DNA of 63,929 bases, counting the filler. It is 9 parts of 9 records of this genome, joined end to end, with 100 filler letters (N's around TTAATTAATTAA, not from the genome) between each part and the next. Parts side by side here need not be neighbours in the genome. Positions count along the whole stretch, not along the records: positions 58,784 to 63,929 come from SRR31156797_33379; 8 more parts are not named here. One strand, given 5' to 3'. Below are positions 60,710-63,929 of the stretch, one piece after another; within the stretch, counting starts at the first letter, position 1; each line of letters starts with the position of its first letter. A program made the position numbers and the translations under genes. The notes below the pieces were generated by a model. The model did not search any database, was not told the origin of the DNA, and worked only from the letters and a program-made list of their open reading frames with translations.

Positions 60710-62929
60710 TTAGAACTGACCACCGAGATTAAATTCAAAACTAGATGTTTGCTCTCCCTCTTGGGCATCAAGTGCTTCAGCAAAGATAAACTGGATAGGT
60801 CCAACTGGTGATTGCCAAGAAAAAAGCACCCCAGCTCCTGATCTTTGATAATCTGTAAAGTTGTCTTCACCGATCATCCCATAATCATAAAATATTGCCC
60901 ATCTCATTTTTGCACTAGGAATTAAAGGAAAACCAAGTTCAATGGTATTTGAAAAATACCGTGTAAGAGGTCTTGTATCATCAATTGGCTGAAAGGCATA
61001 CGTCTCAAATCCTCTTAAACTTCTAGGACCCCCCATATAAAAGGTTTCACCATCTGGAATATTTCCAGTATCTTCTAAGAACTTTAGATTGTTTTTATAT
61101 CTAAAGATCACATCATAATCTAATATATCCTCAAGACCATAGAAGAATTTAAAGTATGTATTACTTAGCATATATCGTGCATCACCACCAATACCTGCAT
61201 ATTTTAAACTTGTCCCTGTACTAATCCCTTCTCTTGGAAGAAAATAGTCATCAGTATTATTATAGTTTATATACGGAGTAAATGCACTTGTTAAGAAGGC
61301 TGATTTAGGTGTTCCATCTTCATAAGTGATAGTTGAATCTGAAAGCTCATAGGTTGTACCAACACGTGTGTGTCTTCCAATAGATCGTCCAACTCCCACT
61401 AAGAATCCATACTCTTCAAGCTCTTTTTCATTATCTAAACTTCTATTGATGATCTCTGATTTTTCTCTATAGAGTTTTATTTGACCATCATATTTACTAT
61501 CGTAGATTGCTGGATTTTTTAATGATACTGAGAACTCTGTATTTACTTTAGAATAGTCTATAGAGAAACCTGCTCCTAAACCACTACCAAATACATTTTT
61601 ATCATTGATCGAACCATTGATCATCCATCCCTCATAACTTCCATATCCACCACCAATGACAATATTTCCAGTAGGTGCTTCGACCACAGTTACTTCAAGA
61701 TCAACCTTAGAAGCAGAAACTCTTTTTTGATTGAGTTCAACTTTTTCAAAATATCCAGTTCTTCTTAGCTTATTTCTAGAGTCTTTAAAATCAGTGAGAT
61801 TAAATAGATCACCTGGAGCTAGATACACATCTCTTCTAATAACTCTATCAAGTGTTCTTGTATTTCCTGAAATGATCACATCATTTATATATACTTTATC
61901 TCCAGGAACTACATTGTAGATAATATTTACTGTTTTTTTCTCTTTATCAGGGCTGATATTAAACTTCACATCAGCAAAGGCATACCCTTTGTCTGCAATT
62001 TGTGTTTTGATATATTCTTGATCTTTTCTTACTTGGTTGATATTAAAAATATCACCTTTTTCTAGTTTTAGTTCGTTTAAAAGATCTTCACTTTTTACGA
62101 TATTTTCATCTGTAAATAAGATGATCTCATTGACTGTATATTGTTCACCCTCTTCAATAGTGTATTCGATATTTGCACTATTAGAGTTAAAATCTATCTT
62201 TGAAAAAGGCTTACTGATTTTTGCATCTAAATACCCATTTTGTAAATAAAGATCTCGGATTCGAGCACTATCATATTCTAACTGCTCATAGCTCATCTCA
62301 CCATCATTCATCCCAAAAAACCATGTGAAACAACAATCTTCCTCTTTATTAGCAATAACAGTTTCAAAATCACTTGCTTCTAAGTTTTGGGCACCTTTAT
62401 AGTCGATCTTTTTAATAGTGATCTCATCCCCTTTGTTTACTTGAAAAACAACAGAAACACTATTTTCATTGATCTCATCAACAGATACTTCAACTACAGA
62501 GTTTACAAGACCTTCACGCTCCAATGCAGCCAAAAGAGCTTTTTTTGCATTTTGAACTCTTTGCTTTGTGTACATATTTCCTTTTTTAATATTCATTTGT
62601 GAATACAAAAGTTCCACTTCTTCTTCTCTGGTTTTATATCCAGTGATCTCAATATTTGAGATAAAAGGTTTCTCTTTAAAGTGGAAAGTTAAAACTTTAT
62701 TTTCATTAGTTACCCATATATCTCTAAAGTAGTCAAATCTATAAAACTCTTTAATAGCCTTATTGATCTCTTCCGCACTATAACTATTTTTTGATTTTAG
62801 ATTGATATTTTCTAATGCAACTCTTGTAGAGATTTGAGTAAGTCCCTCAAATTCTATTTTAGTAAATTCCTCATTTGCCATAAGAGCTACAGAAGAACAT
62901 AAAGATAAAAATAAAAGTTTTTTCAGCAA
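60710..62929 (-). CDS. bamA: Outer-membrane protein assembly factor BamA
   Basis: TTG start with AAGGA RBS; POTRA domains (GNTRTLDRVIRR); SLRGF; WQSPVGPIQF; terminal F. Confidence 0.95.
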   Translation of the reverse strand: MLKKLLFLSLCSSVALMANEEFTKIEFEGLTQISTRVALENINLKSKNSYSAEEINKAIKEFYRFDYFRDIWVTNENKVLTFHFKEKPFISNIEITGYKTREEEVELLYSQMNIKKGNMYTKQRVQNAKKALLAALEREGLVNSVVEVSVDEINENSVSVVFQVNKGDEITIKKIDYKGAQNLEASDFETVIANKEEDCCFTWFFGMNDGEMSYEQLEYDSARIRDLYLQNGYLDAKISKPFSKIDFNSNSANIEYTIEEGEQYTVNEIILFTDENIVKSEDLLNELKLEKGDIFNINQVRKDQEYIKTQIADKGYAFADVKFNISPDKEKKTVNIIYNVVPGDKVYINDVIISGNTRTLDRVIRRDVYLAPGDLFNLTDFKDSRNKLRRTGYFEKVELNQKRVSASKVDLEVTVVEAPTGNIVIGGGYGSYEGWMINGSINDKNVFGSGLGAGFSIDYSKVNTEFSVSLKNPAIYDSKYDGQIKLYREKSEIINRSLDNEKELEEYGFLVGVGRSIGRHTRVGTTYELSDSTITYEDGTPKSAFLTSAFTPYINYNNTDDYFLPREGISTGTSLKYAGIGGDARYMLSNTYFKFFYGLEDILDYDVIFRYKNNLKFLEDTGNIPDGETFYMGGPRSLRGFETYAFQPIDDTRPLTRYFSNTIELGFPLIPSAKMRWAIFYDYGMIGEDNFTDYQRSGAGVLFSWQSPVGPIQFIFAEALDAQEGEQTSSFEFNLGGQF

Positions 62930-63079
62930 AGCATTTCCTTTTATAAAATAAGTCAAAAAGTGTATCTAAAAGATGATTATAAATTAGTTAATTGAGTGAA
63001 GATATGTGGTTTTATTTAAAATTGGGTTTTAAATATTGTAATAATTATAGGAGAAGTGCCTCTACACGTCTTGTATGTA

Positions 63080-63108
63080 TTGACTTCTAATTTCTAATTT
63101 GATATAAT
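63080..63108 (+). promoter_or_regulatory. Consensus sigma-70 promoter
   Basis: TTGACT (63080-85), 17 nt, TATAAT (63103-08), with extended -10 TG; predicted TSS near 63115. Confidence 0.85.
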
Positions 63109-63114
63109 TTTCCC

Positions 63115-63204
63115 ACAATTTGAGATTCAAAGAGTTATCTTCTTGCAGTTTGACTAACTGCTAAAGTAACGTTGTAAAGGTGGGGTTTTACCTCACCTTT
63201 TTTT
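63115..63204 (+). ncRNA. Predicted ~90-nt small RNA or attenuated leader; candidate antitoxin RNA
   Basis: Bounded by the consensus promoter and an intrinsic terminator; 63117-63129 is the exact reverse complement of 63263-63275. Confidence 0.65.
63176..63204 (+). terminator. Intrinsic terminator of the small RNA
   Basis: AAAGGTGGGG-TTTTA-CCTCACC then T7. Confidence 0.8.
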
Positions 63205-63261
63205 ATGCGGGTAGTGTAGCAGTTATTTAAGGGTGGGAGCGTTACTTGAAAGGAAGTAACA

Positions 63262-63324
63262 ATGAATCTCAAATTAGTAGTGTTAATTTTAATAGTCCTT
63301 ATTTTCGCAATAAGAGCTTATTAA
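63262..63324 (+). CDS. Ibs-like type I toxin peptide, 20 aa (missing from ORF track)
   Basis: MNLKLVVLILIVLIFAIRAY; AAAGGA RBS inside hairpin GTTACTT-GAAAGG-AAGTAAC; same pattern as Ibs peptides (basic residue, aliphatic core, terminal AY). Confidence 0.75.
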   Translation: MNLKLVVLILIVLIFAIRAY

Positions 63325-63400
63325 TAAAAGGGGGAATTAGTCACTCCCCTGACACTACTTTTCATTGAATTTTAAAAATACTTCTTATTGTTTAAAATAT

Positions 63401-63419
63401 AGGGGGCAAACCCCTTTTT
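63401..63419. terminator. Short terminator between the toxin and the convergent YgiT gene
   Basis: AGGGGGCAAACCCCTTTTT. Confidence 0.6.
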
Positions 63420-63463
63420 ACATTTTTAAAAATTATCTAACTAAAATTGGAAACTCTTTTCTC

Positions 63464-63694
63464 TTAATCTGCTACTTGATACTTTCTAATATCAACTTCA
63501 ACACCATTTTTAGCAATATCCCTAGCACTTTCTAATAAATTTCGTGTGATTTTCTCATCAATATACTTTTCACCACAATTTTCACATATTAAAGCAGGTA
63601 CATCTTTAAAGACAATTGTTGAAGATCCTTTTTCTAAAGTAACTGTTGTGGTTCCTTGTTCTGTTTTTCCATGTTTACAAATCATACATTGCAT
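63464..63694 (-). CDS. YgiT-type zinc-finger protein (MqsA-like antitoxin family)
   Basis: MQCMICKHG...TTVTLE...VFKDVPALICENCGEKY; AAGGA RBS. Confidence 0.88.
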   Translation of the reverse strand: MQCMICKHGKTEQGTTTVTLEKGSSTIVFKDVPALICENCGEKYIDEKITRNLLESARDIAKNGVEVDIRKYQVAD

Positions 63695-63929
63695 TTTATA
63701 TCCTTGTCATGACTCCGATAAATAAAACTCACAATAAACTTTGTTATTTTTATATTTAGTTTATTATATCTTTTTTTGAACAATATTTGATAAAACTAAT
63801 TGTCAAGTTTTTTAATATAATTTGAAGCATACTATAAAATAGTTACTAAAATAAAATGTGACGTATTACTGTGACATTTTTTTGTATAATCTTTGTCATA
63901 AAAATTTTGAGAGAAAAAAGGGAGTAAAT

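Follow-up and report, generated by a model that had tools for sequence, protein, structure and literature searches.

How might a gene for a 20-residue hydrophobic peptide be held silent when the only promoter evident ahead of it also serves a small RNA on the same strand? This question is raised by a cassette at positions 63080–63361 of a 63,929-nucleotide (nt) stretch of DNA, here called the window, whose plus strand carries in succession a promoter, a candidate small RNA, a terminator, an mRNA leader, a small open reading frame (ORF), and a 3′ hairpin. A first-pass annotation had taken the small RNA for a type I antitoxin that targets the start of the adjacent gene from an unusual position, upstream and on the same strand. 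We find that the cassette is real, conserved, and so far undescribed, and that it is probably a type I toxin-antitoxin module with a tandem, single-promoter layout and a ToxIN-like order of parts; we infer accumulation of the RNA, its action in trans, toxicity of the peptide, and a processing step that frees the mRNA.

The upstream half of the cassette begins with a σ70-type promoter at 63080–63108 (TTGACT, 17-nt spacer, TATAAT), with its −35 box at 63080–63085, its −10 box at 63103–63108, and an extended −10 TG at 63100–63101. Its near-consensus character, already annotated, was borne out by a score of 11/12, the highest of any promoter-like site within 62900–63929. The candidate antitoxin RNA that should follow is predicted to be ~90 nt long (63115–63204), its 5′ end being placed from the −10 box and its 3′ end at a run of T's. 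It consists of a 5′ seed, AATTTGAGATTCA (63117–63129); a post-seed stretch (63134–63144); a stem-loop, SL1 (63145–63161; GCAGT/ACTGC, loop TTGACTA); a spacer, AAGTAACG (63164–63171); and an intrinsic terminator (63176–63204), whose stem (63176–63200) has the core GGTGGGG/CCTCACC plus A-T pairs. The seven T's at 63198–63204 end 57 nt ahead of the ATG at 63262, as the first-pass annotation had placed them; a terminator scan gave 7 terminator-like sites, compared to 0.2 ± 0.4 in shuffles. Folded alone, the RNA of 63115–63204 reached −25.5 kcal/mol with the seed mostly open, followed by a stem-loop and the terminator, which is the fold that had been foreseen for it. No Rfam family was reached over 62900–63929, where the best match scored 24.8 bits against a gathering score of 77.

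Downstream of the terminator, the leader of the peptide mRNA (63205–63261) contains two conserved blocks, GCGGGTAGTGT (63207–63217) and GGGTGGGAGCG (63231–63241), and a hairpin of CGTTACTT (63240–63247) with AAGTAAC (63254–63260) at the Shine-Dalgarno (SD) sequence (63250–63256). The 20-codon ORF, MNLKLVVLILIVLIFAIRAY (63262–63324, including the stop codon), encodes a candidate membrane toxin. Beyond it lie the 3′ hairpin (63330–63349; GGGGGA/TCCCC), whose loop (63336–63344) contains TTAGTCA and is complementary to the SL1 loop, and a 3′ tail, ACACTACT (63352–63359), which can pair with codons 5–8, AGTAGTGT (63276–63283); module conservation stops a few bases farther on.

How much of the upstream RNA is complementary to the downstream mRNA? 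In the window, the seed is a perfect 13-nt complement of 63263–63275, within codons 1–5, as had been noticed, and when 63109–63372 was shuffled 500 times with dinucleotides preserved, 2 of the shuffled sequences contained a perfect inverted repeat of 13 nt or more. The spacer at 63164–63171 is perfectly complementary over 8 nt to the 5′ arm of the SD hairpin (63240–63247), and 63150–63168 is 79% complementary to 63212–63230 over 19 nt. By eye, the post-seed stretch at 63134–63144 pairs with the SD region (63250–63260) at 10 of 11 positions; the claim that pairing extends over the SD sequence stands, with one mismatch and two G·U pairs in place of the single bulge that had been described. Cofolding of the RNA with the RNA downstream of it, akin to a check that the first-pass annotation had proposed, was run with RNAcofold on 63115–63204 and 63205–63372 and gave a net −19.9 kcal/mol, using the 13-bp seed duplex.

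The cassette belongs to a family. The 371-bp region around it matched two of five near relatives at 82 to 87% identity, and DNA matches to the cassette (E ≤ 1e-6) were found in 35 of 184 Arcobacteraceae genomes. An even, order-wide sample of 401 genomes yielded 14 matches, all of them already among the family matches; none of the genomes first seen in that sample matched, nor did any phage record. A profile built from 28 aligned copies and run with nhmmer on the collected loci produced 51 full-length matches, 49 of them unique; one degenerate copy (L069:1038–1262) was dropped from the pairing tests, for which n = 48. Nearly every match carries both halves of the cassette, RNA and ORF, and the copies share one order: −35 and −10 boxes, a variable 5′ stretch, SL1, a short spacer, and a GC-rich hairpin with 7 to 10 T's, followed by the blocks GCGGGTAGTGT and GGGTGGGAG(C/T)G, the SD hairpin, the 20-codon ORF, TAATAAAA, a hairpin, and a short tail. 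Conservation runs from the −35 box to just past the 3′ tail, and the flanks differ between copies (alignment of 28 copies), which lie in unrelated genomic places, some beside an integrase or tRNA gene. Their neighbors include housekeeping functions (aconitase, FolB, MnmA, release factor, histidine kinase) as well as toxin-antitoxin, defense, and mobile-element proteins (Fic, YoeB, Mrr, CI repressor, RHH/NikA-like, and YokU/MqsA-like proteins). Aliarcobacter cibarius H743 has one full copy (L109; NZ_CP043858.1, 91358–91629) on its mobilizable 237-kb plasmid, pACIB; a tyrosine recombinase (integrase) gene and a Fic gene flank this copy, which overlaps no annotated feature.

That complementarity is kept by compensating changes in this family is, on sequence grounds, the strongest evidence that it exceeds chance. 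We compared the pairing of each segment with its own partner to its pairing with the partners of all other copies, using 10,000 permutations. The seed paired with ORF positions −3 to +21 at −15.24 kcal/mol when the partner was its own and at −5.57 kcal/mol when partners were swapped, and the own partner was best or tied in 35 of 48 copies. Among the first 28 copies, which have 27 distinct seeds, the contiguous seed duplex was 7 to 16 bp long (median, 11.5; at least 9 bp in 26 copies) and began 3 to 14 nt past the −10 box. Own partners were likewise favored by the pre-terminator spacer with the 5′ arm of the SD hairpin (−10.89 versus −7.09 kcal/mol) and by the post-seed stretch with the SD region (−8.64 versus −4.89 kcal/mol, in windows that partly overlap those of the seed test). 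Two contacts that the first-pass annotation had overlooked behaved in the same way: a kissing contact between the SL1 loop and the 3′ hairpin loop (Watson-Crick run, 7.71 nt own versus 5.44 nt swapped) and a helix between codons 5–9 and the 3′ tail (7.23 versus 4.38 nt). For each of these five tests, 0 of 10,000 permutations reached the own-partner value. Conserved and covarying complementarity in homologous loci, which had been named as one of the checks, is thus present in 48 copies, and the family keeps the annotated pairings of the RNA 5′ end with the ORF start, of its extension with the SD region, and of the pre-terminator stretch with the strand that locks the SD sequence. A further annotated pairing, of TAACTGCTA on the 3′ side of SL1 with TAGCAGTTA in the leader, was not supported: own and swapped partners were equivalent (−8.45 and −8.46 kcal/mol), with no covariation. 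We also rejected a pairing of the 3′ tail with leader block GGGTAGTG, which was weak (−8.40 own versus −7.98 kcal/mol swapped; 403 of 10,000 permutations reached the own value).

A column-wise count of pairs on the whole-module alignment (47 sequences, leaving out the degenerate copy and L072, a duplicate of L073) found 90.0% of cells paired, compared to 78.8% in shuffles, none of 500 of which reached the observed value; when partners were slid by 1 to 3 columns, 37 to 62% of cells were paired. The loop-loop helix was 93.6% paired and contained three covarying pairs (UA in 30 copies and CG in 16; UA in 36, GC in 6, and AU in 4; AU in 43 and GC in 4), and the helix between codons and tail was 94.4% paired, with compensating changes at seven of its eight pairs. 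G·U was found in preference to A·C in two helices, at 32 copies to 6 for the spacer with the SD arm and at 32 to 2 for the codons with the tail. Because G·U is preferred over A·C, we conclude that these two pairings form in plus-strand RNA.

The same bias bears on whether the complementary stretches might instead be inverted repeats at the DNA level, belonging to a small mobile or repeated element. The presence of multiple copies in unrelated places, sometimes next to an integrase or tRNA gene, would suit such an element, but the repeats are internal and nested rather than terminal, the pairings fall exactly on the SD region, the start codon, and the hairpin loops, the G·U excess is seen on the plus strand in these two helices, and promoter, terminator, and ORF are all conserved. 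We give this explanation almost no credence.

Does one promoter serve both the RNA and the peptide? A hairpin followed by 7 to 10 T's was present in 48 of 48 copies, and the stem sequences vary between copies; hairpin energies ranged from −12 to −27 kcal/mol (flanking A-T pairs counted), the predicted RNA was 77 to 100 nt long, and the T-run ended 41 to 66 nt ahead of the start codon. All usable copies thus have, as annotated in the window, a predicted RNA on the strand of the ORF and upstream of it, with a promoter of its own and a canonical terminator. Promoter scans of 28 copies found 29 promoter-like matches in the bins from −170 to −130, which correspond to the upstream promoter, and just 2 σ70-like sites from −120 up to the start codon; neither strand showed a second promoter that is conserved. 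With no promoter evident for the ORF alone, read-through from the single promoter is the sole evident source of the peptide mRNA, in support of the earlier suggestion that one promoter may give rise to both a terminated RNA and a read-through mRNA. We considered and rejected an ORF promoter inside the RNA, formed by TTGACT of the SL1 loop, a 17-nt spacer, and TGTAAA: by eye and in the scans, the second hexamer falls short of the required bases and other copies do not preserve the motif. A minus-strand promoter-like site at 63396–63369 (score, 9/12) was taken as a chance match because it sits in the unconserved flank.

These scans also bear on an arrangement in which the real antitoxin is an antisense RNA transcribed from the minus strand over the ORF start, the plus-strand element merely tuning transcription. 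When only a −10 box was required, the −10-like TAAAAT was found on the minus strand ~20 nt into the ORF (in the stretch equivalent to 63287–63298) in 9 of 28 copies, including that of the window, and by eye the upstream terminator can also be read as a minus-strand hairpin. That −10 box is missing from the other 19 copies, however; the modules of the 28 copies contained no extended −10 on the minus strand, and no minus-strand bin held more than four matches under the two-hexamer rule. Conservation stops at the −35 box and past the 3′ tail, and therefore there is no conserved promoter outside the module from which such an RNA could come. Since four covarying plus-strand pairings would be left unexplained, we regard a minus-strand antitoxin as very improbable.

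How would the RNA and the read-through transcript fold? In the RNA alone, the first 18 nt had a mean unpaired probability of 0.70, compared to 0.35 for the rest (48 copies). In the read-through transcript, seed and start region were paired with each other in the minimum-energy fold of 47 of 48 copies, and the unpaired probability of the start codon fell from 0.40 in the mRNA alone to 0.13. Such folds are also what one would expect of a purely cis-acting leader, in which the ~250 to 300 nt form a single mRNA that encodes a small membrane peptide, its upstream part acts as attenuator and translational lock, the terminated RNA is a functionless by-product, and the peptide need not be a toxin. All covarying contacts are possible within one molecule, there is a single promoter and none for the ORF alone, both halves are found together in nearly every match, and self-inhibiting 5′ untranslated regions (UTRs) are known for zorO (PMC5397157) and AapA1 (PMC5416894; here and below, excerpts of the cited papers). 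Nevertheless, the terminator with its 7 to 10 T's is invariant, which a mere folding element would not require, and the terminated RNA is built like a classic trans-acting antisense RNA in having a 5′ seed left open, a loop for recognition, and a terminator; in addition, no ligand-binding or sensing fold was recognized with Rfam.

Genomes with several copies, and copies in decay, argue further against a leader that acts only in cis. Twelve genomes carry two to four copies each, and within a genome the seeds do not cross-pair: cognate seed and target paired at −15.4 kcal/mol and noncognate ones at −5.2 kcal/mol, with only 1 of 38 noncognate combinations at or below −11 kcal/mol. Decayed copies tend to lose the toxin start yet keep the RNA gene. 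At L074:1502–1715 (minus strand), a deletion fuses leader block GGGTAGTG to a similar stretch of the ORF, TAGTAGT, so that the SD region and start codon are gone and promoter, small RNA, and terminator remain intact; at L069:1038–1262, the SD region and first codons are gone and the same three parts are kept. At L067:203–345 (plus strand), an orphan unit of promoter, RNA, and terminator has lost the whole ORF and is followed by an unrelated gene, with a product starting MDKIIAVRFFKTELGNEPVKEW, which may be a Gp49/HigB-type toxin. Taken with the invariant terminator, these observations make the cis-only leader unlikely in our judgment, although it is the most serious of the alternatives.

Some of these loci are rearranged in other ways. 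L069:600–1720 (plus strand) holds three tandem copies, of which the middle one is degenerate, with odd short-repeat DNA (CCTAACACCTAACACTTAGCACTGAAC-like) between them, and L067 has two further tandem copies downstream, one of them truncated. L086:470–550 (plus strand) is a relic that consists only of the 3′ half of the ORF and the 3′ hairpin and, by eye, follows the apparent 3′ end of a tRNA gene; this site is possibly an island boundary.

For the type I module that we prefer, we propose the following course of events. Transcription would start at ~63115, and most polymerases would stop at 63176–63204, releasing the ~90-nt RNA, whereas a minority would read through to yield an mRNA for the 20-residue peptide. 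The single-stranded 5′ end of the RNA would pair with the SD region, the start codon, and codons 2–5, its pre-terminator stretch would pair with the 5′ arm of the SD hairpin, and its SL1 loop would contact the loop of the 3′ hairpin of the mRNA; the start site, clamped between helices, would then be untranslatable. We suggest that a read-through transcript would be silent once made because the same contacts form within one molecule, and the released RNA would silence any message that lacks its own 5′ part. As happens in other type I systems, the toxin would appear only once no new RNA is being supplied, and we speculate that decay from the exposed 5′ end would take the seed first and so arm old messages. 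On balance, we lean toward a scheme in which promoter and terminator set the ratio of antitoxin to toxin, as in type III systems, and in which the leader silences the read-through transcript in cis and a leaderless message in trans, through three to four short, co-evolving contacts (one of them loop-loop, ~185 nt apart); loss of the seed, for example by 5′-end decay, could time the arming.

Several points weigh against this interpretation. The length, abundance, and ends of the RNAs are predictions from sequence. Every pairing could also form inside one read-through transcript and so is no proof of action in trans, and a leaderless mRNA, which is not derivable from sequence, requires a processing step that has to be assumed. 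The ratio of G·U to A·C was just 14:9 in the seed, the loop-loop contact showed 3:12, and the permutation counts overstate independence because the copies are related. RNAalifold predicted 0 pairs from a plain MAFFT alignment of 47 RNAs; we attribute this result to misalignment of hairpin arms of unequal length, and for this reason we folded the copies singly and counted the named pairs. No family was found for the peptide in Pfam (E ≤ 1) or NCBIfam (E ≤ 10), whose profiles are weak on 20 residues. For the orphan RNA of genome G162, no separate target was found in the fragmentary assembly, where the lone near match lies inside a protein-coding gene.

What kind of peptide would be controlled in this way? 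From the aligned start, the ORF is exactly 20 codons long in 46 of the 49 unique copies. That start is ATG in 32 copies, TTG in 10, GTG in 5, and ATA in 2, and 48 of 49 copies have an SD-like motif; L091 is exceptional in starting one codon later. Residues 2–4 vary, and the hydrophobic core and a C-terminal tyrosine are kept (histidine or asparagine in four copies). As in the cassette peptide, Ibs peptides have ~19 to 20 almost entirely hydrophobic residues, a basic residue near the N terminus, and an aromatic C-terminal residue. The resemblance of our peptide to this family (ibs/sib, named in PMC2887945) is tentative, and no Pfam or NCBIfam match was obtained; Sib RNAs differ from the cassette RNA in being fully overlapping antisense RNAs.

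Where does the cassette stand among known systems? The first-pass annotation knew of no described system with this layout, and our searches of full-text literature and Rfam support that statement: no type I system was found in the full-text literature either for Arcobacter or with such a layout, although supplementary tables (Fozo et al. 2010, T1TAdb) lay outside the search and could list Arcobacter ORFs. In reviews, type I antitoxin genes overlap the toxin gene, diverge from it, or converge on it, and they have their own promoter, which is not a formal definition (excerpts of PMC4147584 and PMC8167048); the phrase "same strand" was not found in PMC4147584, PMC8167048, or PMC8594479. The base pairing of antitoxin RNA with toxin mRNA that defines type I action is found in the cassette sequences, over the SD region and start codon and with compensating changes in 48 copies; a separate antitoxin promoter opposite, divergent, or convergent to the toxin is not, the RNA lying upstream on the same strand with one promoter for both.

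The order of parts is that of type III systems. In toxIN, the antitoxin RNA is followed by a Rho-independent terminator and the toxin, and ~90% of transcripts are said to stop at the terminator (PMC4147584). The cassette shares with these systems a single promoter, an RNA in first position, then a terminator and the toxin on the same strand (PMC4147584, PMC8167048), and in type III the terminator sets the antitoxin excess. In contrast, type III antitoxins are tandem repeats that bind an endoRNase of ~170 residues, whereas the product of the cassette is a 20-residue hydrophobic peptide and its RNA is without repeats and shows complementarity to the mRNA, the mode of action of type I antitoxins. 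Tandem Repeats Finder gave only a 7-nt × 2.3 repeat, in the promoter spacer, and no direct repeats were found within the ~90-nt RNA. AbiF/RCd22 of Clostridioides difficile is also different, in that RCd22 binds a large protein directly, in type III-like fashion and without mRNA pairing (PMC12373285).

AapA1/IsoA1 of Helicobacter pylori comes from the same phylum and, as predicted for the cassette, involves a small toxic peptide, an mRNA fold that blocks translation, and loop-loop contacts that give cognate specificity (PMC5416894). IsoA1 is, however, an overlapping antisense RNA from the opposite strand with its own promoter, and AapA1 has 30 residues (PMC5416894); an opposite-strand antisense of this kind finds no counterpart in the cassette, which has no conserved minus-strand promoter. 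In tisB/istR-1, zorO/orzO, shoB/ohsC, and dinQ/agrB, the antitoxin adjoins the toxin gene and has limited complementarity to it, and the full-length 5′ UTR inhibits itself until processed (PMC4147584, PMC5397157, PMC7708055). Those antitoxins are divergent, have their own promoters, and bind the 5′ UTR, whereas in the cassette the candidate antitoxin forms the 5′ part of the toxin's transcription unit and extends over the start codon. In the par locus of plasmid pAD1 (Fst RNA I/RNA II), the interaction starts at a hairpin loop. Like the cassette, par relies on several short, separate contacts, including one at the translation start, instead of full overlap (PMC4147584, PMC8167048); the par RNAs, with separate promoters and a shared bidirectional terminator, are convergent, unlike those of the cassette, both of which are read the same way from a single promoter.

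Searches for type I systems assume an antisense or divergent antitoxin gene and, if our reading is right, their rules must be widened; the same silencing logic would then operate with the antitoxin upstream, on the same strand, and sharing the promoter of the toxin. The layout would connect type I and type III systems and provide a simple setting in which to ask how a toxin mRNA gets free of an antitoxin attached to it. Because overlap gives no free complementarity here, the 48 copies are a natural data set on the co-evolution of an RNA and its target at several sites. They also bring a peptide and an RNA family, for which the one annotated record examined has no annotation, to a group with food-borne and animal-associated Aliarcobacter among its members.

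Other observations concern individual parts of the module. Leader blocks GCGGGTAGTGT and GGGTGGGAGCG are among its most conserved parts and showed no covariation with any partner tested; they might be a site for ribosome standby, processing, or protein binding. Within the ORF, the codons TTA(A/C)TTTTAATA (63287–63298) are nearly invariant in nucleotides, though synonymous changes would be possible in the Leu and Ile codons. In L031:1502–1781 (minus strand; 87% identity), the closest relative of the window copy, one inserted base close to the ORF end abolishes the stop codon, and the peptide is extended to 40 residues.

The window itself (1–63929) is a chain of unrelated contigs with runs of N between them, and its GC content swings from ~0.21 to 0.61. 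The cassette sits on the last contig (about 58736–63929; ~5.2 kb), together with an M16-type peptidase gene, a radical-SAM gene, and bamA (60710–62956, minus strand). BamA assigns this contig to Arcobacteraceae: one genome contig (L001) is 98% identical, and the rest are 34 to 71% identical. The 500-bp spacer after bamA holds the cassette, and the next gene is a 76-residue zinc-ribbon ORF (63464–63694, minus strand) that converges on it and has a promoter-like site at 63710–63681. This ORF matches Pfam YokU, a putative antitoxin, at 34.1 bits (cutoff, 27) and MqsA_antitoxin more weakly, at 27.4 bits, which is below the cutoff of 30; no partner toxin gene for it is visible up to the contig end. 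Between the two, downstream of the module and outside its conserved part, a hairpin at 63401–63416 is terminator-like on both strands and is possibly the 3′ end of the peptide mRNA at this locus.

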